Source of the DNA: a virus
Length of the DNA stretch: 64,000 nt
Direction: 5' to 3' (one strand)
IMG/VR virus record: IMGVR_UViG_3300045988_094428
Location: 1-64,000 of that record
Position numbers and translations under genes: made by a program. Position 1 is the first letter of the stretch; each line of letters starts with the position of its first letter. Of this stretch, positions 8,776 through 32,621 are shown in pieces. The notes beneath the pieces are model-generated. The model ran no database searches. It was not told the DNA's origin and was given only the letters and a program-made list of their open reading frames with translations.

Positions 8776-9883
8776 GAAATGGTTGCCTGACCTTAAACAT
8801 ATCGTGAATTGCTGGAATATCCTTAGAGATTAACGTACCAACTATATGCGGTGACGTAATATAGGGCAGACAGGTTCTCTGATATGGTGAAAATCGTTAA
8901 TATTGGACAATCAGCAACCAAGCATCTAGCTTTGCTAGATGAAGGCTCAACGACTAAGTGCGATATAATATAAGTTAGATTAGAATTTATATAGAATGGA
9001 GGTGAAAATATGAGACATAAAAGTACATTAACAGAAAATGATAGCAATTTAGTAATTGAAATGTATAATAGTGGTATGTACCTAAAAGATATAGCCAGTT
9101 CTTTTCATTGCAGAGTGACTAAGATTACTGATATTTTACATGACGCTGGTATTAGAACAAACAATGAAGGGAAATATCTAAATCGGCTTGCAAATACAGC
9201 ATACTTTGACGTAATTGATAGCGAAGTAAAAGCGTATCTCCTTGGTTTTATAACCGCAGATGGTTCGGTTGGAGCAAGGACAGGGAGGAATTTTGGTAAA
9301 ACACTAAGGCTTGAACTTCAAGAGTCTGACGAGTCTATTTTGGATTTGCTCTCAAGCGAATTGAATATTAAAAGCAAGAAATATTATCACAATAAGAATG
9401 GGAAAATTACTGTTTCTGTTGGTATCAGTTCTACAGAGATAGTTGATTCTCTTGAAAAATACGGCGTGGTTGCTAATAAGACATACGTTCTCGAATCTTT
9501 ATTCATGGACTTACCAGATGATTTGTTGAGGGCATATTTACGTGGCCTTTTCGACGGTGATGGTAGTTTATATATTTCTAGCGGCATTGTTCATGGGAAC
9601 TTCACGGAAGGATTAGAGCATATCGTTGTGCAGTTCAGAGATATAATAAACTCCAAAATTGGCATCGAGAATACCACAAAGATTCAGTGCAATAATGGTG
9701 CATATCATGCTGTGTGGAATGGCTCTAATTGCGTAAAGCTATGTGAATATCTTTATAAGGACGCAAAATATTTCTTGCCGAGAAAATATGAATTTGCAAC
9801 TACAGCTATAAAGTCTAACTAATTCTAACTTATATTAAAGATATAGTCTGACCTTATTGGAAACAGTAAGATTAACAAAAATG
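8776..9883 (+). mobile_element. Putative group I intron (1108 nt) interrupting the phoH Walker A codon; carries a LAGLIDADG homing endonuclease ORF
   Basis: Exon 1 ends in U (8775), the element ends in G (9883). Joining 8775 to 9884 restores GTYGSG-KSFLSMQMGL, a canonical Walker A. The downstream ORF continues with PhoH motifs (ARGEGSAVGYLPGEFEQKV, VVDEAEDLTESQLRLVGTRLGQNSRIFFSGDYKQ). Confidence 0.5.
9010..9822 (+). CDS. LAGLIDADG homing endonuclease (intron-encoded)
   Basis: Two LAGLIDADG motifs (YLLGFITADGSV, LRGLFDGDGSL); own RBS GGAGGTGAAAAT-ATG. Confidence 0.7.
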   Translation: MRHKSTLTENDSNLVIEMYNSGMYLKDIASSFHCRVTKITDILHDAGIRTNNEGKYLNRLANTAYFDVIDSEVKAYLLGFITADGSVGARTGRNFGKTLRLELQESDESILDLLSSELNIKSKKYYHNKNGKITVSVGISSTEIVDSLEKYGVVANKTYVLESLFMDLPDDLLRAYLRGLFDGDGSLYISSGIVHGNFTEGLEHIVVQFRDIINSKIGIENTTKIQCNNGAYHAVWNGSNCVKLCEYLYKDAKYFLPRKYEFATTAIKSN

Positions 9884-10402
9884 AAATCATTTCTAAGTAT
9901 GCAGATGGGATTATATGGTGTAAATGAGAAAGGCTATCAGTCCAAGATTCTTGGTGTACGTGAAGCGCGTGGCGAAGGTAGCGCAGTTGGTTACTTGCCC
10001 GGAGAGTTTGAGCAAAAAGTTGGTGATTTCTTTAAGCCTTTGGAGCAACAGCTAAAAGGCGGTGAGTTTGAGTTGCAGAGTCTAAAGCAGCGTGGTGTAC
10101 TTGATGTTCAGATTCCTTATTATCTAAAAGGAACTACTTACGATAGCACCATTATGGTTGTTGACGAAGCAGAGGATTTGACGGAATCGCAGTTGCGTTT
10201 GGTTGGCACACGGCTTGGTCAGAACTCAAGAATTTTCTTTTCTGGTGACTATAAGCAGTCACTAATCAATAAGACTATTAGCAATCCGCTTGTTAAGATG
10301 TGTGACGAATTTAAGGGTAGCCCTAATTTTGCTTGCGTATTTCTTGACACCGATGTTCGTAGTGAAGCATCTAAGATGTTTGCTACTTTGTTTAAACAGT
10401 AA
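9884..10402 (+). CDS. phoH: PhoH-like ATPase exon 2 (remainder of Walker A and the PhoH core)
   Basis: KSFLSMQMGL... then PhoH-family DEAQ-like box VVDEAEDLT and GDYKQ motif. Confidence 0.55.
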   Translation, partial: KSFLSMQMGLYGVNEKGYQSKILGVREARGEGSAVGYLPGEFEQKVGDFFKPLEQQLKGGEFELQSLKQRGVLDVQIPYYLKGTTYDSTIMVVDEAEDLTESQLRLVGTRLGQNSRIFFSGDYKQSLINKTISNPLVKMCDEFKGSPNFACVFLDTDVRSEASKMFATLFKQ

Positions 10403-11209: not shown

Positions 11210-11467
11210 ATTAGTGTTCAAGGAGGTGCGAGAACCATAAGGAAAAGCGGCTTTTTGACCACTTTGATGAATTTTGGAGTTAGTGAAAAAGATGCAACCG
11301 ATTTTGCTAACGAGGTTATCAACAGAGGTGGCAAGATGAGTTATGAGGGTGCTTATCATATTTGGGAAACCGAAATGATTAAGGCCGGAATCGCATCTAC
11401 AAAAGATAAGATGGTTGCAAAAGATACAATCAGCAATAAATTATTTGGATAAAAGGAGTATCTAATT

Positions 11468-12967
11468 ATGGCAAATTTTGCAAATGCAGTTCGTGAATCT
11501 GCACGAATGACCACTACCGCAAATGGAGCAAAGTGCTACAATACCACTGGTAGCAAGATGCTTGACCTGTTCTCTACCGCTGGCGGTATGCGCACTCGAA
11601 TCAATGATGTTCGTGATGCGTTCTCTGCGGCATGGAACGAGAATCCTGAGCTGGCAATTAAGCTGGCTTTCTATTGTCGTGACGTGAGAGGTGGACAGGG
11701 TGAACGTGACGTTGCACGTGAGATGCTTCGCTGGGTCGCAGAATATCATCCTTCCACTATGCGTAAGAATTTGAAGTTCTTGCCTGAGTATGGTCGTTGG
11801 GACGATATTTACGTCTTTGTTGGCACTAAGGTCGAGAATGACGTATGGCAGATGGTTCGTGAGCAGTTCACCGAGGACATCAAGAACGTCAATTCCGGTA
11901 AGTCCTGTTCTCTGATGGCTAAGTGGCTGAAGTCAGTCAATACTTCCTCTAAGAAGTCTGTCGAGTTTGGTCGGTTGACCGCTCGTAAGTTGGGACTGTC
12001 TTATATGCAGTACCAGAAGACTCTGGCAAAACTGCGTAAGTACATTAACGTGACCGAGGTTAATATGTCTGCAAACAAGTGGACTGATATTAACTACGAA
12101 GCTGTCCCTTCTAAGGCTATGACTAACTATCGTAGCGCATTCGCCCGTCACGACCACGAAGGATTTACCGACTATATCAACGCTGTTAAGGCCGGAGAAA
12201 AGACTATTAAATCTAACACTTTGTATCCTTATGACCTTGTACATCAGTACATGGGCGGCGGTGGAATGGTTTCTTATCGCTCCGGTTACTACAACTGCGG
12301 TGGTTTGGCAGATAAGGAAGATGCTGTTGTTGAAGCACAGTGGAAGGCATTGCCCAACTACATTGACGGAAACCATAACGTGATGGTTATGGCAGATACG
12401 TCTGGTTCTATGCGTGGTCAGCCCATCGAATCCGCTCTTGGCCTTGCAATGTATTTTGCAGAGCGTAATAGTGGCCCTTATAAGAATCTGTTTATGACCT
12501 TTAGCTCTCATCCTTGCTATGTCACTCTGGATGAACAGAGTATGCTCGGCAACTTGAAGAAGGCCGCAAAAGCTGACTGGATGGGTTCTACCAACCTTGA
12601 AGCTGCCTTTGCTAAGATTCTCAAGACTGCGACTGACAACCACCTGACTGATGACGAGTTGCCCAAGGCACTTGTTATCATCTCGGATATGCAGTTTAAT
12701 AAGGCGTTGATTCAGGGCGACAACTACTTCGACTCTATGAAGAATATGTATGCCGCACACGGTTATACCCTTCCTCATGTTGTGTTCTGGTGCGTAAATG
12801 CTTGGGCTGGTTCTACTCACCATAATAACTACAACGACTACGTTACTACGTTTAGCGGTAATGCCGCAAGCACTTTCCGTGATGTTCTCGGAACTATCGG
12901 TTATAATGCTTACGAGGCTATGTTGAAGGTTCTGAATGGTGAGCGTTACGCGCAGATTCATGCCTAA
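11468..12967 (+). CDS. vWA-domain protein with a ~300-aa N-terminal region that may be TROVE/DUF2828-like
   Basis: MIDAS motif VMVMADTSGSMRG in the C-terminal half. The N-terminal similarity to the TROVE module of Ro60-like proteins is tentative and recalled, not computed. Confidence 0.4.
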   Translation: MANFANAVRESARMTTTANGAKCYNTTGSKMLDLFSTAGGMRTRINDVRDAFSAAWNENPELAIKLAFYCRDVRGGQGERDVAREMLRWVAEYHPSTMRKNLKFLPEYGRWDDIYVFVGTKVENDVWQMVREQFTEDIKNVNSGKSCSLMAKWLKSVNTSSKKSVEFGRLTARKLGLSYMQYQKTLAKLRKYINVTEVNMSANKWTDINYEAVPSKAMTNYRSAFARHDHEGFTDYINAVKAGEKTIKSNTLYPYDLVHQYMGGGGMVSYRSGYYNCGGLADKEDAVVEAQWKALPNYIDGNHNVMVMADTSGSMRGQPIESALGLAMYFAERNSGPYKNLFMTFSSHPCYVTLDEQSMLGNLKKAAKADWMGSTNLEAAFAKILKTATDNHLTDDELPKALVIISDMQFNKALIQGDNYFDSMKNMYAAHGYTLPHVVFWCVNAWAGSTHHNNYNDYVTTFSGNAASTFRDVLGTIGYNAYEAMLKVLNGERYAQIHA

Positions 12968-14600: not shown

Positions 14601-14699
14601 ATATGGGGTATTAGTCTAACTGGACAAAACATCACTCTCCTAAAGTGAATTTCTCCGTTCGAGTCGGGGATGCCCCACCAAAATTTTTCTCAAAACCAC

Positions 14700-14728
14700 T
14701 TGACAAATCGCAAAAAGTATGATAGAAT
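14700..14728 (+). promoter_or_regulatory. sigma70-like promoter
   Basis: aaaaccacTTGACAaatcgcaaaaagtaTGaTAGAAT. Confidence 0.55.
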
Positions 14729-15213
14729 ATAGGTGTTCCAAGGGGAATAGAAAGAAAGGTATATTGCATGAAATATGAGACTGTAAAAATGCACGAGTCT
14801 ATTCCTATGACACCGAAACGTCTTTATGAGTGGGCTGTTGCAAACGGTGTTGAAGATTGTCAGATGTATTTTCCGGCAGACGAGCTTGAATGAGATGTTT
14901 ATTTGACTATGGATGATATGTGTAAAGAACATCGTGATTTTGATAAGAACAAGGAAATGGTAGTCAATATTCGTAGGTAATTGTATGATGGTTTTTGTCT
15001 ATGAACTGAAATATGTTGATAAACGCAAATTAGTCCCAGTCACAGAGAGTCCAAAGACGAGGACAATCGCTACGGTGATTAACAAAGTTACTGGAAACGA
15101 TGTTAAGCGTTTGTATAATCGCTTGAAGCGAAGTGGCAATATGCCACAGATGGAATATCTAAAAGATGGAAATTATCGTATTATGTATATGGCACTGCCT
15201 AATGGGTTGAAGT

Positions 15214-16056
15214 TTGACCCATTCTATAAGGACGGGATATATTACAGAGGAAGGAGCGTATTTGACCGTGATGACACTTGATGACAGAATGAAAACTTAT
15301 TATGAGGGTGCATATCGTGTTTATCTGACACGGCGTATGCCTGTCATTATCCGAATCGACTCTCGTGCTGGGCACACCTTTACAAAGAATCTGAAAAAGC
15401 CCTTTGATGTAGTTTTCACTGCAACGATGCAGGATACAATGAAGTATCTGTGTGAAAACATTCAGGGTTGTGTAATTGGTTATACGCAGTCTGACGAGAT
15501 TACTTTGTGCCTTGTTGATTATGACAAGCTGGAAACCGATGCTTGGTTTGGTTATAATCTAAACAAACTGGTAAGCCTCAGTGCATCAATGGCTACGTTG
15601 GCATTTAATAAGTGCTTTGAACGTAATGCCAATAGAACCCTCACTAAGATGGCATTGTCCTCTGGCGTGAATAAGTTTGAAATTGACGCTTACTCTGCTA
15701 CATTGGCAAAGTGTAAAGAAAAGGGTTTGTGTTTCGATTCTCGCGCCTTTAATATCCCGAAGGAAGAGGTGTGCAACTGCTTCTTATGGAGACAGCTTGA
15801 CGCTTCTCGAAACAGTATTCAGGCGGTTGGTCAGGCTAATTTTTCGCATACCGTTCTGAATGGTAAGAATACTTCCGAGATTCAGGATATGTTGATGAAC
15901 GAGAAGGGTATCAACTGGAATAATCTTGCTACAGAATTGAAGCGTGGCTCTTGTTGTGTGCGAGATGAAGGTGGCTGGACTATCGACCATGAGATTCCTA
16001 AGTTCTCTGGCGATGGTCGTGATTACATCGACAAGCTGATTTATATCGGTGAATAA
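15214..16056 (+). CDS. Thg1-like protein (tRNA-His guanylyltransferase / 3'-5' polymerase family). True start probably ATG ~15274.
   Basis: VIIRIDSRAGHTFTK matches the Thg1 RIDGRxFhkF motif; GYTQSDEITLCL matches the Thg1 GQSDE motif. Confidence 0.6.
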   Translation: MTHSIRTGYITEEGAYLTVMTLDDRMKTYYEGAYRVYLTRRMPVIIRIDSRAGHTFTKNLKKPFDVVFTATMQDTMKYLCENIQGCVIGYTQSDEITLCLVDYDKLETDAWFGYNLNKLVSLSASMATLAFNKCFERNANRTLTKMALSSGVNKFEIDAYSATLAKCKEKGLCFDSRAFNIPKEEVCNCFLWRQLDASRNSIQAVGQANFSHTVLNGKNTSEIQDMLMNEKGINWNNLATELKRGSCCVRDEGGWTIDHEIPKFSGDGRDYIDKLIYIGE

Positions 16057-16083
16057 ATTTTAAAAAATATTTTCCAAACCCCT

Positions 16084-16111
16084 TGACAAATGACAAAAAA
16101 TTTGATATAAT
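16084..16111 (+). promoter_or_regulatory. sigma70-like promoter
   Basis: ccaaaccccTTGACAaatgacaaaaaatttgaTATAAT. Confidence 0.55.
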
Positions 16112-16136
16112 AAGGGTGTCAAGAGGAGGTGGTTGA

Positions 16137-16703
16137 ATGGCTACACGATGGTATGATTAGGTCTATCTTCCAAATCATCCGAGGGCAGGAACGAACGGAA
16201 ATGTATTTGTCCATGTAATTGTTGCTGAACAAAAGATTGGAAGATACCTGAAGCCGGAAGAAGTTGTTCATCATATCAACATGGATAAGCATGATAATCG
16301 ACCAGAAAATTTATTGGTTGTCGCTACAAATAGTGACCATGCGGCAATTCATAATGGATGTAACTATGAATTGGATAGTGATGGTGTGGCACATTCAATA
16401 AAGAAAGCGTGCTTTTGTAAGGTATGTGGAAAGATTATTTCTTATGGTTCTGAAATGTGTATTGATTGCTGGCATGAATTTTTGAACAAAAATAGTGCTC
16501 CACATAAAATAGTCGATGGACATTGCATAATTATAACACGTGATGAATTAAAATATAAGATACGCCATAAGTCGTTTGTCGGTATCGGCAAAGAATTTGG
16601 TGTCTGTGACAATACGATAAGAAAATGGTGTAAAAAGTACAACCTCCCTTTTAGAACAAAAGATATAAAGAAATATACAGATGAAGAGTGGGTGAGTGTT
16701 TAA
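16137..16703 (+). CDS. HNH homing endonuclease with an in-frame TAG at codon 8 (16158-16160)
   Basis: MATRWYD-TAG-VYLPNHPRAGTNG...VHHINMDKHDNRPENL is the classic HNH N-terminus and HNH motif, continuous across the TAG. Strong RBS AAGAGGAGG. The C-terminal ~60 aa is shared with the 17348-18100 ORF. Confidence 0.6.
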
Positions 16704-16898
16704 CACCCACTAATATACGTCCTTAGTGTAACGAATAGCACGAAAATCTCCAAAATTTTTAGTAACAGTTTGACTCTGTTAGGACGCGCCAGTTAGACTT
16801 TGTTTGGTTAAGTTAAACATCAATAGCTAGTCTATGTTGGTGAGTTAAAAACCAAGTTCGTGCGCACGAATTTCTTGCGGGAGCAAGGTCGTTTATAT

Positions 16899-16973
16899 GC
16901 GCTTATCGTTCAATGGATAGGACAAAACTCTTCTAAAGTTTTTATGTGGGTTCAATTCCTACTAGGCGTACCA
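16899..16973 (+). tRNA. tRNA-Arg (anticodon TCT), CCA encoded
   Basis: Acceptor GCGCTTA/TAGGCGT, D arm GTTC/GGAC, anticodon arm AAACT-CTTCTAA-AGTTT, T arm GTGGG-TTCAATT-CCTAC. Confidence 0.7.
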
Positions 16974-16974
16974 C

Positions 16975-17060
16975 AGACGCATACAGCAATCCATAAATTT
17001 TGATGGTTTAAAAAGAATGCTTAAAACAATCTTTTACGGTTCGATTCCGTTCTGCGTCTA
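16975..17060 (+). ncRNA. tRNA-like element, identity unresolved
   Basis: Acceptor-like pairing AGACGCA/TGCGTCT; T8A9; T arm ACGG-TTCGATT-CCGT. No convincing D/anticodon arm by hand; 85 nt. Confidence 0.3.
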
Positions 17061-17137
17061 ATTTTTAGTTATTCTTTATCTTTTTCTGAATCTGATAGAT
17101 ACGAACAGCAACACTTTCTTTGTTCGCGCCACTAATT

Positions 17138-17212
17138 GCGGATATAGTTTAGATGGTTAGAACGCCACACCGAAATGTGGAGACGTGGGTTCGAGTCCCA
17201 CTTATAGTCGTG
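17138..17212 (+). ncRNA. tRNA-like element, probably a pseudo-tRNA
   Basis: Canonical D arm (GTTT-agatggtta-GAAC) and T arm (GTGGG-TTCGAGT-CCCAC). The anticodon stem CCACA/TGTGG encloses only 6 nt. The acceptor stem does not pair. Confidence 0.3.
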
Positions 17213-17220
17213 TCTAATAT

Positions 17221-17293
17221 GCCCGGTTAGTCAAGTTGGCTAAGACGAGTGATTCTCAATCACTAGGCGGCAGTTCAATCCTGCCACCGGGTA
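17221..17293 (+). tRNA. tRNA-Glu (anticodon CTC), no encoded CCA
   Basis: Acceptor GCCCGGT/ACCGGGT, anticodon arm AGTGA-TTCTCAA-TCACT, T arm GGCAG-TTCAATC-CTGCC. Confidence 0.6.
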
Positions 17294-17298
17294 CTTTA

Positions 17299-17330
17299 TG
17301 GTCGAGTAGCTCAGTTGGTTAGAGCAGTAG
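17299..17330 (+). ncRNA. Truncated tRNA 5' fragment (acceptor + D arm), directly upstream of the PD-(D/E)XK endonuclease gene
   Basis: GGTCGAG-TA-GCTC-AGTTGGTTA-GAGC-A-GTAGA... but no matching 3' half (no CTCGACC) within 1 kb. Confidence 0.4.
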
Positions 17331-17347
17331 ATAAATGGGGTATGAAT

Positions 17348-18100
17348 ATGGTAAATTCAAAGATGAAAGGCAATATTGCAGAGTCGCGTATTTTATATGA
17401 ATTTGTTTAGAGAGGAATACCAGTTTCAATACCTTACGGCGATAATGAACGCTATGATATGATAGCGGAATTTAATGGAAAGCTGAATAAGATACAGATA
17501 AAGTTCTGCAATCAACAAATAGTTGATGGTTCGATAAGCTGTCCATGTTCTAATATAGTAAATCCATTAACAAAAAGTAAGCATAGAGAATTATATGTTA
17601 ATGATGTTGATTATATGGCATTTTACATATATGTATGGGATGTTGCTGTTATAATTCCAACAAGTTACATAGGGAATAGGATTCAGATAAAGATTAGAAA
17701 AGAACGTGCAAAGAACAATCAAACTACAGCTTCTACATTTGTTGATGACTTTACTTTTGATAAAATTGTTGGAGCAGATGTTCGTAATGTGATAGAAGAA
17801 CAACAAAATGTATATGAAAAAGCATATAATAGATGTGTTGATTGCGGATGTGCCATATCGGATAGGGCTGTGAGATGTTTAAGGTGTAGAAACTTGAAGC
17901 AATATGAAGAAACGGCAAATCCGAATATGATAGATAGAGACACGCTTAAATCCATGATTAGAAATATGCCATTTAAGCATATCGCATCTATATGTGGAGT
18001 TTCAGATAACTGTATTAGAAATTGGTGTAAAAGATATAATCTTCCATATCGTACATCTGACATTAAGAAATATACAGATGACGAGTGGAGTGATGTATAA
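17348..18100 (+). CDS. PD-(D/E)XK (Hjc/archaeal-resolvase-like) endonuclease with C-terminal domain shared with the HNH protein; in-frame TAG at 17408-17410
   Basis: GNIAESRILYEFV-TAG-RGIPVSIPYGDNERYDMIAEFNGKLNKIQIK matches the E..V...L...G..V..P..D...YD.I.E..GK...IQ.K nuclease core across the TAG. C-terminus ...NCIRNWCKRYNLPYRTSDIKKYTDDEW matches the 16137-16703 ORF. Confidence 0.5.
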
Positions 18101-18239
18101 TTTTTAGCTAATTACCAAAACAATATCCCACTGACATAATAATACCCATTTTTTCGGTTTGGCTAACAGCGCATAGCTATAAAAGTCTAGGATTATTGGA
18201 TAGGCTAACAATGACTGCTGGAAAGACAGCAATTTATAT

Positions 18240-18316
18240 GCGGCAGTAGTTCAACTGGATAGAACAATCGGCTACGAACCGATAGGTTGCGAGTTCAAGT
18301 CTTGTCTGCCGTACCA
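18240..18316 (+). tRNA. tRNA-Arg (anticodon ACG), CCA encoded
   Basis: Acceptor GCGGCAG/CTGCCGT, anticodon arm ATCGG-CTACGAA-CCGAT. Confidence 0.7.
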
Positions 18317-18438
18317 GATAAATGAGTCTCAAATTACGCTGGACAAAGGGGAGCCTTTTATGGGTGACTGTTATGACAGTGACCCTGATTATCGGTGACG
18401 ATACTAACTCATGAGAGTGCGTAAGCCGACATTTATAT

Positions 18439-18524
18439 GTGCGTGTATCCGAATTGGCATAGGAGCTGCTTTGAGATGGCAGTGTCGAAAGACATTGTGG
18501 GTTCAAGTCCCACCATGCACACCA
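18439..18524 (+). tRNA. tRNA-Leu (anticodon GAG), class II with GAAA-capped variable arm, CCA encoded
   Basis: Acceptor GTGCGTG/CATGCAC, anticodon arm CTGCT-TTGAGAT-GGCAG, variable arm TGTC-GAAA-GACA, T arm GTGGG-TTCAAGT-CCCAC. Confidence 0.65.
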
Positions 18525-18527
18525 AAA

Positions 18528-18649
18528 TACAGGATGGTTTCAATGGTAAAACATCGCCAAAATAAGAATGTGTCTATGTAGACATAAGCCGCAATTATTT
18601 TTTCTTAAAAGCCAAGACGAAGATGTTGGTTCGACCCCAACTCCTGTAT
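18528..18649 (+). ncRNA. 122-nt tRNA-like RNA 'A'. Perfect acceptor, D and T arms, but ~50 extra nt (with a TGTCTA-TG-TAGACA hairpin) in place of a normal anticodon arm.
   Basis: Acceptor TACAGGA/TCCTGTA (7/7), D arm GTTT-caatggta-AAAC, T arm GTTGG-TTCGACC-CCAAC. Internal segment cannot be folded into a 5-7-5 anticodon arm by hand. Confidence 0.4.
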
Positions 18650-18656
18650 TTATTAT

Positions 18657-18732
18657 GCGAGATTAACTCAACTGGAAGAGTGCTACCCTTACAAGGTAGA
18701 AGTTACAAGTTCGAGTCTTGTATTTCGCACCA
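18657..18732 (+). tRNA. tRNA-Val (anticodon TAC), CCA encoded
   Basis: Acceptor GCGAGAT/ATTTCGC, anticodon arm CTACC-CTTACAA-GGTAG, T arm ACAAG-TTCGAGT-CTTGT. Confidence 0.7.
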
Positions 18733-18818
18733 TACGACAGTTTATAAGCTAAACAAGTCCTGCCGTGGACAAAACAAAAACTTAATTTGCGGTTGAGTGA
18801 CCTTAAACTCACCATTAT

Positions 18819-18935
18819 GGCTGTGTAGCTCAATAGGCTAGAGCGCGTAAAACCTATCTATTTTAGATAGTAACAGCTACACATTTTTCCATTATAAGGA
18901 CGAGGTTTATGGTTCGAGTCCATACGCAGCCACCA
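18819..18935 (+). ncRNA. 117-nt tRNA-like RNA 'B'. Same architecture as A, with a ~50-nt insert containing a CTATCTA-tttt-AGATAG hairpin.
   Basis: Acceptor GGCTGTG/CGCAGCC, D arm GCTC-aataggcta-GAGC, T arm TATGG-TTCGAGT-CCATA, CCA encoded. Confidence 0.4.
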
Positions 18936-19327
18936 AAAATCTAAAAAAGAAGGGAAATGAATCCGATGCAGTAGATTGATAATAATAATCCTATGGTTTT
19001 CTTTCAAATGTTGGGTGAAGTTGCCGGTGATAACATCATGAGCAAGATTTCCCGACTAAAGATTAGTGAAGAAAATGGAATTGTTACTTTATATCTAAGA
19101 GATGAACGTGAACCGTTTAACGATAGTGAACTTAGACAGCTAAGATACATCTTAGAAAGATGGTATGATATAATTTCTTTTAGGCGTGAAGATAGGCTTA
19201 CTATGTTAGATATGAAGGTAAGAAAATAACCCTCCTTTATTTTTATATATAAAAAGACACATCCAGCAAACTTTTATTAAATTTTGAGTAGCCTTATGAT
19301 TCAATTTTTAATGTGTCTTTTAGATTT

Positions 19328-19415
19328 GCCAGTGTAGTTCAGTTGGTAGAACGCGGGTTTTGTAATCCCGATGCCGAAAGGGTTCTCGCAGGTTCGAGTC
19401 CTGTCACTGGCTCCA
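19328..19415 (+). tRNA. Class II (long variable arm) tRNA with atypical anticodon region CGGGT-TTTGTAA-TCCCG (anticodon TGT by canonical numbering; contains GTA)
   Basis: Acceptor GCCAGTG/CACTGGC perfect, D arm GTTC/GAAC, 17-nt variable arm, T arm GCAGG-TTCGAGT-CCTGT, CCA. Anticodon stem has a U-U at its base, so the loop is effectively 9 nt. Confidence 0.45.
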
Positions 19416-19416
19416 T

Positions 19417-19492
19417 GCCACTTTAATTCAGTAGATAGAATGATGCGTTCGTATCGCATACGTCGTAGGTTTGATTCCTACAGGTGGCTCCA
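19417..19492 (+). tRNA. tRNA-Thr (anticodon CGT), CCA encoded
   Basis: Acceptor GCCACTT/AGGTGGC, D arm ATTC/GAAT, anticodon arm ATGCG-TTCGTAT-CGCAT, T arm GTAGG-TTTGATT-CCTAC. Confidence 0.7.
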
Positions 19493-19630
19493 ATCGCACC
19501 TATGCTGTGGTAGAATAGGTATAGGCAAGTATTTTAACTACCGTGTCCATAGAGTTAATGGACTTGGGAGGTACTGACAAGACAGAAGAGCAAGTACCAT
19601 GCACGTGGGCGGGTATTCGTGCTTTCATTT

Positions 19631-19718
19631 GCGCTCGTAGCTAAGTTGGTATAGCACCGGACTTTTAATCCGGGGTGGATTATTCCTATCGTGGGTTCAA
19701 GTCCCACCGGGCGCACCA
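19631..19718 (+). tRNA. Class II-architecture tRNA with anticodon TTT (Lys-reading anticodon on a long-variable-arm scaffold), CCA encoded
   Basis: Acceptor GCGCTCG/CGGGCGC, D arm GCTA/TAGC, anticodon arm CCGGA-CTTTTAA-TCCGG (perfect), 17-nt variable arm with GGA/TCC stem, T arm GTGGG-TTCAAGT-CCCAC. Confidence 0.5.
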
Positions 19719-19866
19719 CGCGGTAAGTAGTTTTCGAGTTGCGACTATTGTAGCTGGTATTCGTAAAAAATATAGTAAATGCGTGATATGACAGTATGCC
19801 GCGTTTGTGTCAAGGAACAAGCACATTGCGGATAAACCGATGACTGCTGGAAAGACAGCGTTTTAT

Positions 19867-19943
19867 GTTTCCATAGCTCAGTTGGTTAGAGCGCAATCCT
19901 GATAAGATTGAGGTCGAATGTTCAATTCATTCTGGAAACACCA
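19867..19943 (+). tRNA. tRNA-Ile (anticodon GAT), CCA encoded
   Basis: Acceptor GTTTCCA/TGGAAAC, D arm GCTC/GAGC, anticodon arm CAATC-CTGATAA-GATTG, T arm GAATG-TTCAATT-CATTC. Confidence 0.75.
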
Positions 19944-19955
19944 CTTATTTATTAT

Positions 19956-20046
19956 GTGGTAGTACCCAAGAGGTTGAAGGGGCTTGCTTGGAAAGCAAGT
20001 AGGCGGCGTAAGCCGTGCAGGGGTTCAAATCCCTTCTACCACGCCA
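19956..20046 (+). tRNA. tRNA-Ser (anticodon GGA), class II, CCA encoded
   Basis: Acceptor GTGGTAG/CTACCAC, anticodon arm CTTGC-TTGGAAA-GCAAG, 19-nt variable arm GGCGGC-gtaa-GCCG, T arm AGGGG-TTCAAAT-CCCTT. Confidence 0.7.
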
Positions 20047-20173
20047 CGACCGTAAAGATGAACAAAATGGAGCATACGGTGTTACAAAACCGTCTCGGAG
20101 TGATTGTATCACAAGGGGATTTAACGGAATATATGCTCGATGCGTGGTTCGCAAAACCTAAATTGCAAATATG

Positions 20174-20247
20174 CGTCATGTGCCAGACGGCTAGGCGAGA
20201 GACTGCAAATCTCTTTTAGATTGGTTCGACTCCAATATGACGCTCCA
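20174..20247 (+). tRNA. tRNA-Cys (anticodon GCA), CCA encoded
   Basis: Acceptor GCGTCAT/ATGACGC perfect, anticodon arm AGAGA-CTGCAAA-TCTCT, T arm ATTGG-TTCGACT-CCAAT. Confidence 0.7.
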
Positions 20248-28075: not shown

Positions 28076-29734
28076 ATGGCAAATTATACAATTTACCATC
28101 TTCATACCATGCTAAGTAATGCAGTAACAAATATCGACTCAGTTACTACGTTTAAGCAATACATAAAAAGAGCACAAGAGTGCGGTATGACCGCACTTGC
28201 TTTTTCAGAGCATGGTAATATTTTTGAATGGGTTCACAAGAAAGACGCTGTTGAAGCCGCTGGTTTGAAATATATTCATGCAATGGAGGCATATCTTACA
28301 GAGCGCATTCCAGATGAGGGCGAAGAAAAAATTCGTGATAACTACCACTGTGTTTTGATTGCCAAAAACTGGGAGGGTGTTAAGGAACTTAACCGTTTAC
28401 AAGGAAAGGCATTCAATAGAACAGACGGTCATTACTACTACGCACCGAGAATTACATTTGCTGAATTATTTGCTACAAGTAATAATATCATTATTACCAC
28501 AGCTTGTGTTGCATCTGCATTATGCAAAGGAACAGAAAGCGCGAAGGCGTCATATCTTAGATTTCTGACGAGACATAAAGATAGATGCTTCTTGGAAGTT
28601 CAGCATCATAATACGCAAAAGCAGTTTGAGTATAATAGATATTTGGCAAATCTGTCTAAGGAAACTGGTCTTAGATTGATTGCTGGTACTGATACGCATT
28701 GTTTAAACGCAGAGCATGAACTTGGTCGTAGCGCACTACAGCGTGGCAAGGGCGTTTTTTTCGATGATGAAGTCGGTTGGGATTTGACATGGAAAACCTA
28801 CGATGAACTTGTCGAGGCATATAGAACGCAAGATGCTCTCAGTGAAGAAGAATATATGTCTGCAATCAATAACACAAATGTTATGGCAGATATGATTGAA
28901 ACCTTTGAACTTGATAGAAGTTTCAAGTACGCAAAGATTTACGATGATGGTGAAAAAGTCCTCCGTGAAAAGTTGTTTGCGCCAGAAACTATCGAGCCGA
29001 TTATCAAGGAGGGATTTTCAAGAGAAGAAGTAACTGCGCGTTTGGAGCAGGAAATTGACACTTTTAAGGCTTTGAACGCAACTGACTTTATTCTTCTCGA
29101 AGACCATATTGTGCGTTGGGAGCATTCGCATGATATGTGGCAAGGCCCTGCGCGTGGAAGCGCCGCTAGTTCCTTGGCTTTGTACGCTTTGGGCGTGACA
29201 GAAGTGAACCCATTGAAATATGGATTTTATTTCTGGCGATTCATGGATAAATCTAAGTACAGCTTGGCTGATGTTGATATGGATAACTCGGCAAAAGACC
29301 GTGATAAACTGAAGTTCTGGATGTTGAACGACCACCTAGACCTTCCGAATGTCAAGACTTGTGAAATTATTACGTTCAACACAATCGCATTAAAGGGCGC
29401 AATTCGTGATATTGGACGTGGATTGGATATGCCTCTCGATGAGGTTGATACGATTGCAAAAGCTGTTCATGAAGTAGCAGTCGATGAAGAAAAGATTGTT
29501 ACTATTGATGATAGCTGGCGTAAGAAATATCCAGAGTTGTTCAAGTACGTTGATATTGTTATTGGCACTATCGTTAGCATCGGTTCTCATCCGTCTGGTG
29601 TTGTTGTTTCCGACCATGACATTGAATCGGAATTTGGCCTGTGCTATCTAAAAGATGACCCCTATCCTGTCTCCTGCATCAATATGAAGGAACTTGATTC
29701 CCTTAATTTTACCAAACAGGATGCCCTTGGGTAA
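28076..29734 (+). CDS. dnaE: DNA polymerase III alpha (DnaE-like), N-terminal portion (PHP domain through the finger region); reading frame leaves the polymerase around 29711-29734
   Basis: PHP-domain start YHLHTMLSNAV...ALAFSEHGNIFEW. C-terminal end ...CINMKELDSLNF aligns to the DnaE LLKMDF box. Confidence 0.6.
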   Translation: MANYTIYHLHTMLSNAVTNIDSVTTFKQYIKRAQECGMTALAFSEHGNIFEWVHKKDAVEAAGLKYIHAMEAYLTERIPDEGEEKIRDNYHCVLIAKNWEGVKELNRLQGKAFNRTDGHYYYAPRITFAELFATSNNIIITTACVASALCKGTESAKASYLRFLTRHKDRCFLEVQHHNTQKQFEYNRYLANLSKETGLRLIAGTDTHCLNAEHELGRSALQRGKGVFFDDEVGWDLTWKTYDELVEAYRTQDALSEEEYMSAINNTNVMADMIETFELDRSFKYAKIYDDGEKVLREKLFAPETIEPIIKEGFSREEVTARLEQEIDTFKALNATDFILLEDHIVRWEHSHDMWQGPARGSAASSLALYALGVTEVNPLKYGFYFWRFMDKSKYSLADVDMDNSAKDRDKLKFWMLNDHLDLPNVKTCEIITFNTIALKGAIRDIGRGLDMPLDEVDTIAKAVHEVAVDEEKIVTIDDSWRKKYPELFKYVDIVIGTIVSIGSHPSGVVVSDHDIESEFGLCYLKDDPYPVSCINMKELDSLNFTKQDALG

Positions 29735-31088
29735 ACAATCCTGCCCAAGTAAAAGCGAGTTATATGCTGGGAAGTGCTTAGAGCCTCAGTTACCAAAGTG
29801 TGACAATACTGAGGATTGCACAATCAGCAGGCACGATAAGTTCTGCCTCAACGACTATGGGAATATCCCAACTGTCATAGAGTGATTTATGACAGTAACC
29901 TCGCTGAAATGATATAGTCTGGTCTGCATTTAATAGTGCAGAGTCAAGCAGAAATGACTTGACATTTTGTTTGCTTTCTGATATAATATATGTAAAGGTG
30001 GTGATTGTATGGCGAAAGCAAGATATACGAAAGTGTAGTTCTATAATGAAATACTCCGGTTGTATAAAGAGTATGGCGAGATAAACCAAAATATCTACGC
30101 AAAACACACAAGTCTTGATGTTAGCTTTAGACAGTATTGTAATAAGTACGGTGGATTAAAGCAGATATGTAAAGACCTTGGAATAGAGTATAGCTATTAT
30201 AATGAAGTTTCCAAAGAGCAAGCGCTTGAACGTGGGCGAATGTTGCTAGAGCAATATGGATTCTTGCGAAAGGAACTTTGTCAAAAGAACGGAATATCAT
30301 CTAGTACAGTTGCGAAACTGTTTGGAAGTTATCAAAACTTTTATAAGGAAGTTGGATATAACACAGACTTTCGTAGAGATGTTCCAGTTGAAGCTGTAAG
30401 AAAAGATATACTCGAATTTATAACCGAAACTGGTTCTAAGTCAATTACAGACTACAAGAAAGCGCATCGGTATTCACAATCTATAATTGATAGATGTGGT
30501 GGGTGGCATACAATTCTTGTTGATATTGGAGTAGAACCAAAGAAATGGCGTAATGGTAAAGACAATATAATCAAACAGACACGTGAATTGATAAACAAAT
30601 ATGGTTATCTGTCAAGTAAACTAATAGAAGATAATTGCGATTTTACTTTGCAAGCGTTGGAGTATTACTTAGGAAACGCTGATAGTATTTGCAAATATTT
30701 CGGTAATGAGCATTTATTTGACTACGGCAGAAGTAGTCAAGAACTCAGAATAGCAGAGTTACTCGAAGATATTCTAGGTGTCGGGAATTTTTCACGTGAA
30801 GTTGCATGGGATTGGTTGTTGTCAGACAGCGGCAATCATCTGTATGTGGACTTTTATATTGATTCTTTAAAAGTTGCGATAGAATATGACGGTGAGCAAC
30901 ACTACAAATACGTTGAAAGGTTTCATAGAAATTATGATGGGTTTCTTGAATATCAGCGTAGAGATAATATAAAGAGTTCGTTGCTTGCAGAACATAACAT
31001 CAAACTTATTAGAATATCATATACGCAAGAAATATCAGAAAAATATCTAAGAGATATATTAAGCAAACAAAATTAACAAAATTACGTG
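29711..31088 (+). mobile_element. ~1.35-kb intervening sequence splitting dnaE (putative group I intron, boundaries approximate), carrying an endonuclease ORF and an internal promoter
   Basis: The DnaE alignment resumes in the next ORF (xDNVGIINE... vs TLTIINW...; AIMQEPQMAFVQEFCGYDFLRADKLRKIIGKK vs the DnaE YQEQVMQIA...GADLLRRAMGKK). Internal promoter gactTGACAttttgtttgctttctgaTATAAT at 29959-29988. Confidence 0.4.
30060..31076 (+). CDS. Endonuclease with C-terminal DUF559/Vsr-like PD-(D/E)XK domain, encoded inside the dnaE intervening sequence
   Basis: VDFYIDSLKVAIEYDGEQHY...RDNIKSSLLAEHNIKLIRI matches the Vsr-like restriction-endonuclease fold common in free-standing and intron-encoded HEGs. 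Confidence 0.5.
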   Translation: MYKEYGEINQNIYAKHTSLDVSFRQYCNKYGGLKQICKDLGIEYSYYNEVSKEQALERGRMLLEQYGFLRKELCQKNGISSSTVAKLFGSYQNFYKEVGYNTDFRRDVPVEAVRKDILEFITETGSKSITDYKKAHRYSQSIIDRCGGWHTILVDIGVEPKKWRNGKDNIIKQTRELINKYGYLSSKLIEDNCDFTLQALEYYLGNADSICKYFGNEHLFDYGRSSQELRIAELLEDILGVGNFSREVAWDWLLSDSGNHLYVDFYIDSLKVAIEYDGEQHYKYVERFHRNYDGFLEYQRRDNIKSSLLAEHNIKLIRISYTQEISEKYLRDILSKQN

Positions 31089-32621
31089 GATAACGTGGGT
31101 ATTATCAATGAAACTTGTAAATTAGCTGGCATCGAGAGATTGTCACCTAAGACGATTGACTTTGAGGATGATGCAGTTTGGAATAGTATCAAGGAAGATA
31201 CATCTTTGATTTTTCAGATGAACTCCAACTATGGTCAGCGCACAGTTGATAAGATGTTGTCACCAGAGGTTTACAGCAAGATTAAGAAGCAGATTCCTAA
31301 TATGACACGTTTGGATTTGCTGACGTTCATCAATGCTCTTATTCGTCCTTGCGGCAAGGGAGTTTATGATGATGCGACGAACGGCATCGTATCTAAAACA
31401 GGAATCAGAGAGATTGATGATTTGCTTGGTTCTTCTATGGGCTATGCAATTATGCAGGAACCTCAGATGGCTTTTGTTCAGGAGTTCTGTGGTTATGATT
31501 TCTTGAGAGCTGATAAACTTCGTAAGATTATCGGCAAGAAACTTGGTACACGTGACCAGCTTCCTATTATTAAGGAAGGTTGGGAAAAGAACGCAAAGGT
31601 CAAATATCATTTAACCGATGAGCAGTCTGACAAGATTATCAATCCGTTCTTACAGTGTATTCTCGATGCTACACGATATTCATTCTCGCTGGTTCATAGT
31701 TTGAGCTATTCTTGCATCAGCTATGAATGTGCATATCTGCGTTATCATTATCCGTTACAGTATTTGACTTCTTGCCTTAACGCATGGAACGGTGACGATA
31801 ACAAGACAGCAGAAGCTATTGAATACGCAAATAGTCGCAAGGTAAAGATTCTTGCGCCTAAGTTCAGACACGCAAAGGCAGAATATTTCTATGACCTTTC
31901 TACAAACAGTATTTATAAAGGTACGAGTAGTATCAAGGGATTAAATGCAGGGTATTCTGATTTCTTGTATTCTTTGAAGGATAATTCTTACAAGACATTT
32001 ACAGACCTACTGTACGATATTCAGGCATCTGGTATGCCTCGTGACCAAGTTGAAACTTTGATTAAACTTGACTACTTTGAGGAGTTTGGCACTTGCAGAG
32101 AGTTGGCAACAATCTTTAAGCAGTTCCAGTTCTTTAAGAAGGGCGAAGCGAAAACGATTGCTAAGAGCAAGATTCCAGACGAGATTACAATGAGCATTAT
32201 TAAACGCAATGCTAACGAAACCGAAAAGCAGTTTAATAAGCTGAATTGCCATAATATCTTAAATGAGATTGAACAGTACATTATGACAATGAATCTTGGT
32301 GATGTTGACATTAAAACCAAGATTGCTAATCAGCTTGAGTATATGGGTTACATTGGCATTAAGACTGACAAACCCGAAGATAGACCTAAAATTGTCATTC
32401 TTGAAATGAAGGTTATGAAACAGCGTGAATCTGTTGAGCCTTGGGGCGTTATCATTGATGCGCAGTCTATCGGTTCTGGTAAGCGCAGTTCTTATACAGT
32501 TCCTTATAAACTGTATAAACAGTGTAAGTTCAACAAGAATGATGTAATTAAGATTCGTGATTGGTATAAGAACAAACGTGGTTATTTCTATATTACTGAT
32601 TACGAGTTCGTGTTTATGTAA
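31086..32621 (+). CDS. dnaE: DnaE-like polymerase, C-terminal portion (palm/fingers to C-terminus)
   Basis: MQEPQMAFVQEFCGYDFLRADKLRKIIGKK and downstream segments align to Pol III alpha. Confidence 0.6.
   Translation: MDNVGIINETCKLAGIERLSPKTIDFEDDAVWNSIKEDTSLIFQMNSNYGQRTVDKMLSPEVYSKIKKQIPNMTRLDLLTFINALIRPCGKGVYDDATNGIVSKTGIREIDDLLGSSMGYAIMQEPQMAFVQEFCGYDFLRADKLRKIIGKKLGTRDQLPIIKEGWEKNAKVKYHLTDEQSDKIINPFLQCILDATRYSFSLVHSLSYSCISYECAYLRYHYPLQYLTSCLNAWNGDDNKTAEAIEYANSRKVKILAPKFRHAKAEYFYDLSTNSIYKGTSSIKGLNAGYSDFLYSLKDNSYKTFTDLLYDIQASGMPRDQVETLIKLDYFEEFGTCRELATIFKQFQFFKKGEAKTIAKSKIPDEITMSIIKRNANETEKQFNKLNCHNILNEIEQYIMTMNLGDVDIKTKIANQLEYMGYIGIKTDKPEDRPKIVILEMKVMKQRESVEPWGVIIDAQSIGSGKRSSYTVPYKLYKQCKFNKNDVIKIRDWYKNKRGYFYITDYEFVFM

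Follow-up and report, generated by a model that had tools for sequence, protein, structure and literature searches.

Two oversized tRNA-shaped elements, designated A and B, are encoded within the tRNA cluster of a 64,000-nucleotide stretch of phage DNA (IMG/VR record IMGVR_UViG_3300045988_094428, positions 1 to 64,000), referred to below as the window. Both are complete tRNA genes with anticodon loops, and both carry a short hairpin-forming insert. On comparative sequence evidence, A and B are probably Y-RNA-like partners of a Ro60-like protein encoded at 11468-12967 of the same window, built into complete tRNAs. Ro60/Y-RNA (YrlA) systems are known already, and the embedding of a Y-type module in complete tRNAs is what is new here. 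A preliminary description of the elements had offered three readings, namely tRNAs with a novel small intron, tRNA-mimicking regulatory RNAs, or Y-RNA-like partners of the 11468-12967 protein. The last of these is favoured on the basis of the predicted Ro60 fold of the protein, the genetic coupling of its gene to the insert across phages, and the occurrence of the module's helix and motif around a YrlA-like RNA in a mycobacteriophage, and it overlaps with the second.

Element A is closed by seven Watson-Crick acceptor pairs (TACAGGA 18528-18534/TCCTGTA 18642-18648) and includes a D arm (GTTT-CAATGGTA-AAAC, 18537-18552), a T arm (GTTGG-TTCGACC-CCAAC, 18625-18641), a variable loop of 4 nt and a discriminator T at 18649, with CCA not encoded. 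The seven acceptor pairs of B include one G-U pair, its D and T arms are canonical, and its 3' end (ACCA) is encoded. The boundaries, stems and insert hairpins of both elements are as first described, but the anticodon arm has not been replaced, as had been claimed: the stem-loop of B is present but split, while the stem of A is intact. In B, the insert divides the 5' strand of the anticodon stem into CG (18846-18847) and TCC (18888-18890), which pair with GGACG (18898-18902) around the loop ATTATAA (18891-18897), where both U33 and a purine at position 37 are present (A-U-UAU-A-A). In A, the insert is situated between an unbroken, covarying 5-bp anticodon stem (TCGCC 18554-18558/GACGA 18616-18620) and the residual loop AAGCCAA (18609-18615), as it is in other Gly(GCC/UCC) members of the family, and A33 occurs where U33 is expected (A-A-GCC-A-A).

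Neither element was called by default ARAGORN or by Rfam at gathering score. Once the insert is removed in silico, default ARAGORN calls B as a 77-nt tRNA-Ile(UAU) and A as a tRNA-Gly(GCC). The Rfam comparison proposed in the preliminary description gave a divided outcome, with B matching the tRNA model at 44.6 bits with a 51-nt insertion (gathering score 29), and A, with its insert in place, having no tRNA match even at E<=10. The intron mode of ARAGORN was set aside, as its parses of the two elements, as Glu(UUC) and Leu(UAA), were wrong and the majority of the remaining 'intron' calls bridged two neighbouring tRNAs. Covariation in homologous phages, also proposed in that description as a check, was found. 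In a six-genome alignment, compensatory changes occur in the acceptor stem of A (G-C/U-A/U-G), in its T stem (U-A to C-G) and in the TCGCC/GGCGA stem around the insert (G-C to A-U, and a C-A mismatch restored to C-G). Furthermore, a strict cloverleaf scan of the window and 76 loci yielded a bimodal length distribution, with genes of 70-89 nt and 110-129 nt and none of 90-109 nt. The Rfam score of B, the compensatory changes in A and the bimodal lengths thus indicate that A and B are real, selected, tRNA-shaped genes.

The module in A comprises the flanking strands P1a (AAAATAA, 18559-18565) and P1b (TTATTTT, 18595-18601), a helix (TGTGTCT 18569-18575/AGACATA 18580-18586) with the loop ATGT, and the bulge AGCCGCAA (18587-18594). 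Among the relatives of A in the six genomes, the loop of the hairpin varies while its stem is constant. The module in B consists of a linker (TAAAAC), a helix (CTATCTA 18854-18860/TAGATAG 18864-18870) with a 3-nt loop, the bulge TAACAGCTA (18871-18879) and the tail CACATTTT. Across the family, the consensus is an A-rich linker, a hairpin of 6-9 bp and variable sequence, and a conserved (T)TACAGCAA followed by TTT; the conserved motif is the (W)WACAGCAA bulge directly 3' of the helix strand. An alignment of 38 ungapped cores from phages outside the clade of the window was used to assess covariation. As the cores had been selected for pairing, their percent-paired figure is inflated. Double compensatory changes are evident for all seven hairpin pairs, with 25 extra pair types (16.3 in shuffles) and a covariation score of 0.895, against 0.277 in shuffles and <=0.19 in slid registers. 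The first loop base (G) and the T before it are (nearly) invariant, although neither was selected for. When a covariance model (R1) built only from the 38 modules of other phages was run on the window, the insert of A was the best match (23.8 bits, E=7e-4).

Genes of this type are widespread, occurring in dozens of other phages. An IMG/VR scan for the common D arm followed 50-80 nt on by a T loop gave >120 matches, and perfect 7-bp acceptor and 5-bp T stems occur in 51 of the 80 loci examined, many of them with an insert of the A/B type. In these genes the insert breaks the 5' strand of the anticodon stem and is followed by a canonical 7-nt anticodon loop. Seventy-five distinct tRNA genes with the module, representing at least 15 anticodons, could be distinguished in all fetched phage and metagenome-assembled genome (MAG) loci, the latter on contigs binned with Lachnospiraceae, Clostridia, Prevotella and others. 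Inserts of 37-71 nt occur after nt 27-31, and their removal in silico resulted in standard tRNA calls by default ARAGORN for 46/46 tested sequences. U33 and a purine at position 37 are kept in 49/60 non-Gly members, while 12/15 distinct Gly-type members, including A, have A or G at position 33, a feature that recurs in unrelated phages. Asn and Asp (GUN) anticodons account for 11/75 distinct genes. On a Lachnospiraceae-binned MAG contig (L337, 6428-7222), four to five tandem tRNAs, every one with the module, lie directly upstream of a DUF2828 gene, and the CUA anticodon of one of them, an apparent amber suppressor, suggests a link to stop-codon-recoded gut phages. When A, B and further members were compared with cultured phages by BlastN, the matches were nearly exclusively ordinary tRNAs or artefacts of concatenated queries, the useful exception being Vibrio phage D482, which has a module-bearing tRNA-Asn annotated as a 110-nt tRNA. 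Among distant relatives retrieved through the Thg1-like gene (70 loci), the tRNA cluster of the window is found in the five close relatives only, and the exact D-arm word of A retrieves the same five contigs from IMG/VR plus chance matches. The pattern TACAGCAA..GGTTCGA gave mostly chance matches and was abandoned, as was the idea that the 3' part of the insert mimics tRNA 5' leaders to serve as an RNase P signal, CAGCAA not being generally enriched upstream of tRNAs outside the clade.

Unrelated insert families are present in other tRNA-like phage genes whose acceptor and T stems are perfect (L093, L098, L109 and others, 108 nt; L099, L121, L153 and L163, 108-120 nt; L108 and L164, 118 nt). 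One such insert, ACCCAAG...GAGACCAAAGTCCGTCACATGAAATCCAGTTGGTCTTTAAAATGCTGGTTGAAAGAC..., occurs in many contigs of ~50 kb, and a DUF2828 gene was found in none of the loci of these families. A distant Thg1-carrying phage encodes a 112-nt tRNA-like gene (L058, 14623-14734) with a further palindrome-containing insert (GACGCGTC...).

The 11468-12967 protein had been labelled TROVE/vWA-like in the preliminary description, a label that stands at the level of fold but not by Pfam, which assigns DUF2828, DUF7788 and a weak vWA domain. The protein matches PHROG 850 ('RNA-binding protein', E=1e-129) and has >7,300 homologs, and the MIDAS (metal-ion-dependent adhesion site) motif DxSGS is invariant. Searches of PDB sequences with the protein returned no Ro60 chain. 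An AlphaFold (AF2) model produced from 38 sequences (pLDDT 90.9, pTM 0.90) has Ro60/TROVE structures as its best full-length Foldseek matches (E=1e-8 to 1e-10), with Thermus phage phiLo (9kop, E=3.5e-10) at the top, together with Xenopus structures (1yvr, 1yvp and 2i91, TM ~0.55) and human Ro60; the protein is accordingly modelled as having the Ro60 fold. A homolog is encoded in 709 cultured-phage records; among these are Felixounavirus, KVP40-like, Listeria, Staphylococcus and Enterococcus phages and mycobacteriophages, the homologs of the last being annotated as 'Ro-like RNA binding protein'.

The module and the gene for this protein family occur together. TBlastN comparison of the window proteins against the fetched loci identified DUF2828 homologs in 54 loci. 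Where loci had been fetched with the tRNA pattern, which is blind to proteins, a DUF2828 gene is present in 30/46 with the module and 0/74 without it (Fisher p=6e-17). In most loci with both, gene and module-bearing tRNA(s) share a strand, with the gene 100-500 nt downstream; this is likewise the case in most MAG-contig loci, 10/12 of which have both module and DUF2828. In the reverse direction, a hairpin and motif followed by a T loop are found upstream of the gene in 37/80 DUF2828 loci, in 33 of them within ~500 nt.

A free-standing form of the module is found at the gene itself, being present in 44/49 distinct DUF2828 5' untranslated regions (UTRs) compared to 77/882 control windows (Fisher p=4e-37). 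Its layout comprises the 5' strand of a helix (AGACAC, GGACGC, AGATAC and others), 2-3 nt, ACAGCAA, 12-80 nt, the 3' strand of the helix, TG, a Shine-Dalgarno sequence and ATG. In the window, the sequence of the 5'UTR unit is AGATAC-AA-TCAGCAA, 21 nt with the Shine-Dalgarno AAAGGAG, and GTATCT. In Vibrio phage KVP40 the unit lies over the DUF2828 start codon. Two further free-standing units, C and D, flank the tRNA elements. Unit C consists of a helix (AGACGCA/TGCGTCT) with the bulge TACAGCAA right after the 5' strand, an internal hairpin, and a T-arm-like hairpin (ACGG-TTCGATT-CCGT) beside the 3' strand, and is devoid of D and anticodon arms. Unit D reads AAGACAC-ATCCAGCAA, ~43 nt and GTGTCTT; its interior varies among L001-L005 while helix and motif are invariant, and both are near-identical to the 5'UTR units of L374 and L392. 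The five modules of the window (A, B, C, D and 5'UTR) have AGAYRY-NN-NCNGCWA in common. The strand and bulge of B (AGATAG-TA-ACAGCTA) resemble the 5'UTR unit of the window, and this variant recurs as AGATAC-AAA-ACAGCTAC in the 5'UTR unit of a 52%-identical DUF2828 gene (L345).

In the free units C, D and 5'UTR the two ends of the RNA pair to form the helix, while in A and B it is a capped hairpin. Circular permutation relates the embedded form to the free one, the hairpin ...CTT-GNNN-AAG... of the former corresponding to the ...CTTG 3' end and AAAG... 5' end of the latter, and the two consensus sequences agree. Some free-standing units contain pieces of tRNA, including T arms in those of L366/L379. 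Upstream of a Ro-like gene in L362 (2650-3005) four units occur in tandem, and in one of them an Asn-like anticodon stem-loop (AAGC-CTGTTAA-GCTT) is the only tRNA-like part. No Rfam family matched C at E<=10, and Rfam 15 contains none that matches the units themselves.

These observations bear on the possibility that A and B are tRNA pseudogenes broken by a small, MITE- or REP-like palindrome of selfish DNA with no function at the RNA level. The inserts are short, form hairpins and occur in many tRNA genes, and homing-endonuclease traffic is evident in the cluster, where an endonuclease gene has truncated tRNA-Phe. Set against this, compensatory substitutions preserve all tRNA stems of A, the anticodon stem was precisely restorable in all 46 tested cases, the hairpins covary at the RNA level and always have a single orientation relative to the tRNA, and the module is strictly linked to one protein family and present in its 5'UTR. 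A pseudogene origin is thus strongly disfavoured and very improbable.

In the favoured reading, A and B as Y-RNA-like partners of the Ro60-like protein, each element would have acquired a Y-RNA-type protein-binding module just 5' of the anticodon. Genetic linkage and homology point to the module as the recognition site of the Ro60-like ring protein. The helix of the free form is closed by the ends of the RNA, while that of the embedded form is loop-capped, its open side leading into the anticodon stem. The position of the 5'UTR module over the ribosome-binding site most likely reflects translational autoregulation. Since A and B combine a complete tRNA with an embedded Y-type module, their transcripts would be tRNA/Y-RNA chimeras, which may tether the Ro60-like ring beside the anticodon arm. 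Given its canonical features, the tRNA body could plausibly be recognised by RNase P, synthetases and the CCA-adding enzyme. From the analogy with Rsr-YrlA and the presence of adjacent RNA-repair genes, the ribonucleoprotein (RNP) would most likely take part in tRNA surveillance, protection or repair during infection.

Several observations weigh against this interpretation. The partnership is inferred from synteny, motif sharing and homology. Pfam TROVE does not match the protein, and A, B, C and D have no match to Rfam YrlA or Y_RNA at E<=10. The insert of B, with its ACAGCTA bulge and 3-nt loop, scores just 9.1 bits (E=9) with R1, and helix P1 averages 3.95 bp compared to 3.62 bp in a mismatched-partner control, so that P1 was dropped as a firm structural element. 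No DUF2828 gene was seen in 16/46 module-bearing loci, many of which are truncated, and in the window the gene is on the same strand as A and B but 5.6 kb away rather than adjacent. Furthermore, the canonical anticodon loops, the breadth of anticodons, the amber suppressor and the all-module cluster of L337 fit decoding tRNAs, and decoding would require removal of a bulky RNP.

This last point leads to a protein-assisted tRNA intron, which is possible but not the expected explanation. Here, a new type of small intron would be cut out by a phage or host endonuclease to leave ordinary decoding tRNAs, the Ro60-like protein would serve as maturase or exon-holding chaperone, and an Rnl5-type ligase would seal the nick in the anticodon stem, after healing by polynucleotide kinase (PNK) if needed. 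The predicted exon-exon junction of B would be GAGCGCG|TCCATTATAAGGACG. The intron and Y-RNA readings partly overlap, as the protein would bind the module in both. Without the insert, the anticodon stem is again a perfect 5 bp and standard tRNAs result (46/46), the loop nucleotides are canonical in most non-Gly members, and B is the sole Ile(UAU) and A the sole Gly tRNA of the cluster. The many anticodons, a suppressor included, and the clusters composed only of module-bearing tRNAs are also consistent with it, as is the variable insert position, expected if the sites are set by the intron's own structure. The window encodes a nick-sealing ligase, a PNK-like kinase+HD protein and a CCA-adding enzyme, and Lak megaphages have been described as carrying 'enigmatic' tRNA introns (PMC6784885). 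However, clean excision would leave A or G at position 33 in most Gly-type members, A included, and the lack of U33 in these argues against simple splicing. There are no conserved splice-site nucleotides and no bulge-helix-bulge (BHB) motif, the inserts are too small for group I introns, and at E<=10 Rfam places neither a ribozyme nor an intron in the A/B region. The module also occurs in 5'UTRs and free-standing units, outside any tRNA, and is thus not intrinsically an intron. Moreover, Ro60 proteins are known for binding stable Y RNAs rather than for splicing, and exact-junction scans of Joint Genome Institute (JGI) metagenome contigs, run for B and for the abundant Val(UAC) type, detected neither an allele lacking the module nor a spliced junction.

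A broader formulation, in which these are working tRNAs whose availability is governed by the Ro60-like ring, is tentative and rather doubtful. It takes two versions: a new, protein-dependent form of tRNA 'splicing' in phages of bacteria, with the module excised and the nick sealed by an Rnl5-type ligase, or aminoacylatable, anticodon-bearing Y RNAs that would bring the Ro60-like protein to tRNA-handling machinery (for example synthetases, EF-Tu or the ribosome).

Conversely, the chimeras may never decode, and may instead act as anticodon-bearing decoys that copy particular tRNAs and so bait host anticodon nucleases or other tRNA-targeting defences, with the bound Ro60-like ring sequestering the attacker or recruiting nucleases or repair enzymes. 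GUN-anticodon tRNAs are classic targets of colicin E5-type nucleases, and Asn and Asp anticodons are well represented among the module-bearing genes. Gly types without U33 are nevertheless conserved with compensatory changes, free-standing units hold tRNA pieces only (the anticodon stem-loop of L362 and the T arms of C and L366/L379), and RNA-repair genes are located nearby. Still, this explanation is unlikely, considering that the anticodons, which include those of Val, Pro, Thr and a suppressor, exceed known nuclease specificities, and that some clusters (L337) hold module-bearing tRNAs only.

The features of the window are summarised in Table 1.

Table 1. Coordinates of the tRNA elements, modules, free-standing units and RNA-handling genes in the window
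Feature	Position	Strand	Remarks
Element A, tRNA-Gly(GCC)-like gene, 122 nt	18528-18649	+	Six-genome compensatory changes; ARAGORN after insert removal
Module in A, 50 nt	18559-18608	+	Top window match of covariance model R1
Element B, tRNA-Ile(UAU) gene, 117 nt, CCA encoded	18819-18935	+	Rfam tRNA 44.6 bits; ARAGORN after insert removal
Module in B, 40 nt	18848-18887	+	Family architecture and position class
Ro60-like protein, 499 aa, DUF2828 + DUF7788/vWA	11468-12967	+	Putative partner of the modules
Free-standing module, 5'UTR of Ro60-like gene	11422-11463	+	Ends 4 nt before ATG
Element C, free-standing Y-like unit	16975-17059	+	98-99% conserved in L001-L005
Element D, free-standing Y-like unit	19254-19319	+	Between 78-aa ORF and tRNA-Thr
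Rnl5-type nick-sealing RNA ligase with LAGLIDADG intein	13-2211		Naegleria RNA ligase, E=9e-25
RlaP nucleotidyltransferase			Among RNA-handling genes upstream of tRNA cluster
PNK-like kinase+HD protein	7134-8039
PIN and PhoH pieces	8089-10402		LAGLIDADG gene (9010-9822) between
SPFH protein			Listed with RNA-handling genes
Thg1-like enzyme	15214-16056
CCA-adding enzyme	51569-53035

The phage genome containing the window is ~150 kb in size, and its closest relatives are five IMG/VR contigs. The genes of the window are on the plus strand, and an SLT lytic transglycosylase (Pfam) is one of the bacterial hallmarks of the genome. The tRNA cluster (14605-20247) comprises thirteen tRNAs detected by ARAGORN and one more detected by Rfam only. 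This last (17138-17209, 41 bits) has several acceptor-stem mismatches and C33, with the anticodon GAA in the window and AAA in L002, and could be a pseudo-tRNA or a substrate of the Thg1-like 5'-end repair enzyme. The tRNA-Phe(GAA) gene is whole in L002, L003 and L005, while the window retains its 5' half only (17300-17331); the 3' half has been exchanged for ~780 bp with a PD-(D/E)XK and helix-turn-helix endonuclease open reading frame (ORF, 17459-18100), in what looks like a free-standing homing-endonuclease insertion. The gene for DNA polymerase III alpha (28076-32621) is in two parts, separated by an ORF (30060-31076) that contains a homing-endonuclease-associated repeat. The tRNA-Thr(UGU) (19328-19415) and tRNA-Lys(UUU) (19631-19718) genes are 88 nt each, with an extra arm of ~13 nt added to the variable region, an uncommon feature in such class I tRNAs; tRNA-Lys is 77 nt in L001-L003 and 88 nt in the window, L004 and L005, an indel polymorphism. 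A leader repeat, GACTGCTGGAAAGACAGC(A/G)(A/T)TTTAT, is located at 18206-18239 and 19838-19866, directly 5' of tRNA-Arg(ACG) and tRNA-Ile(GAU), and one copy includes ACAGCAA without the helix arrangement of a Y-like unit. Most tRNAs of the cluster are preceded by ...TTTATAT|G, some also with a hairpin ahead.

Ro60/Y-RNA particles are conserved from bacteria to humans, and since 2014 the role of the tRNA-like half in bacterial Y RNAs has awaited an answer. Here that half is no mimic but an entire tRNA, anticodon and CCA end included; it is found with at least 15 specificities and abounds in gut phages. If true, the working-tRNA explanation, in either version, would assign a function to it. The question is testable in tractable phage-host pairs, since cultured phages carry homologs, the KVP40 5'UTR unit and the module-bearing tRNA of D482. 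As standard annotation missed A and B, counts of phage tRNAs, possibly with the suppressors of recoded phages among them, may be too low. A functional context also emerges for the large DUF2828 family, as Ro60-like proteins that have a defined RNA motif and are probably autoregulated. Full-text literature searches returned nothing on DUF2828 function or tRNA-embedded Y modules, and searches on phage tRNA introns, decoys and DUF2828 found no description of this module.

Among known systems, several invite comparison. The preliminary description had excluded group I and BHB introns, and this is borne out. As with these introns, the insert is in or near the anticodon arm and the cloverleaf is restored on its removal. 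Archaeal tRNA introns also occur at non-canonical positions, for example within the anticodon stem. However, in A, B and ~30 relatives inspected the insert ends abut at a three-way junction in the anticodon stem or loop, without the staggered bulges of a BHB (two 3-nt bulges on opposite strands around a 4-bp helix), and the inserts (37-71 nt; 50 and 40 nt in A and B) are far below the size of group I introns, whose catalytic core (P3-P9) takes roughly 200 nt or more. Rfam Intron_gpI has no match at A or B at E<=10, and known RNAs in general gave nothing at this threshold. That the search is able to detect group I introns is evident from L392, where a bona fide example (2471-2659, Rfam 62 bits) is located in a tRNA cluster just upstream of another DUF2828 gene. 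The linkage here is furthermore to a Ro60-like protein and not to a splicing endonuclease. The unexplained 'enigmatic' introns of Lak megaphages (Devoto et al. 2019, PMC6784885) are similar in that oversized phage tRNA genes carry conserved inserts without an Rfam match, and Lak-A1 encodes a distant DUF2828 homolog (23% identity). They differ in their size (79-93 nt), in their predicted location at the canonical 37/38 site and in containing a T-arm or minihelix-like element, and helix+ACAGCAA is not evident in the two Lak sequences inspected; with sequences that differ, they were ruled out as members of the same family.

The Ro60 homolog of Thermus phage phiLo binds two Y-like RNAs, Yrl1 and Yrl2, encoded just upstream of its gene (PMC12135203, 2025). 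Like the system described here, it thus combines a phage Ro60 homolog (PDB 9kop, 9l5y) with adjacent Y-like RNAs of stem-bulge-stem form that have a short conserved bulge motif (CGAA in phiLo), and 9kop is the best structural match to the model of the window protein. In contrast, Yrl1 and Yrl2 are free-standing and not tRNAs, and term searches of PMC12135203 retrieved no passage on tRNA embedding or a 5'UTR copy. Mycobacterium phage Appletree2 provides a bridge to YrlA. Downstream of its 'Ro-like RNA binding protein' gene, whose product is 38% identical to the window protein, are three helix+(A/G)CAGCAA units (L422, 2955-3215), the middle of which (helix+GCAGCAA) encloses a tRNA-like domain and matches Rfam YrlA at 39.8 bits (E=2e-6), under the gathering score of 69. 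Rfam YrlA and Y_RNA had no match in the other stretches searched at E<=10, nor at gathering score in 16 further loci, in addition to the lack of matches for A and B, where the preliminary description had proposed this comparison.

YrlA RNAs are encoded beside Ro60 in >250 bacteria and 22 phages; the motif presumed to contact Rsr, GNCGAAN0-1G, has been placed on the 5' strand of the terminal stem, and the interactors of the tRNA-like domain were stated to be unknown (Chen et al. 2014, PMC4201824). The present RNAs are non-coding, as is YrlA (RF02553), with which they share a location beside, and on the strand of, the gene for a Ro60-type ring protein, a stem with a short conserved motif in its 5' strand or bulge that is thought to contact the protein, and a tRNA-like domain with D and T arms. 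The Ro-binding stem of YrlA is, however, formed by the ends of the RNA, its 'acceptor' stem is loop-capped and it has no anticodon loop, while A and B have true acceptor ends (with CCA in B), an anticodon stem-loop and a capped module hairpin 5' of the anticodon. The motif at the equivalent place is ACAGCAA rather than GNCGAAN0-1G, and the window protein belongs to DUF2828, not to TROVE by Pfam. The closest topological parallel is with YrlA of M. smegmatis, which is cut by RNase P and receives CCA (PMC4201824), and thereby has an open acceptor stem with CCA and is topologically a tRNA whose anticodon-side helix is the Ro-binding stem. There, cleavage of the capped stem results in a two-piece RNA without an anticodon, while A and B are encoded directly as tRNAs in one piece, anticodon included. 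Elements A and B therefore stand apart from known YrlA RNAs because they are complete tRNAs with anticodon loops and, although they depart from YrlA in several formal respects, they belong functionally and evolutionarily with the Ro60/Y-RNA (YrlA) systems.

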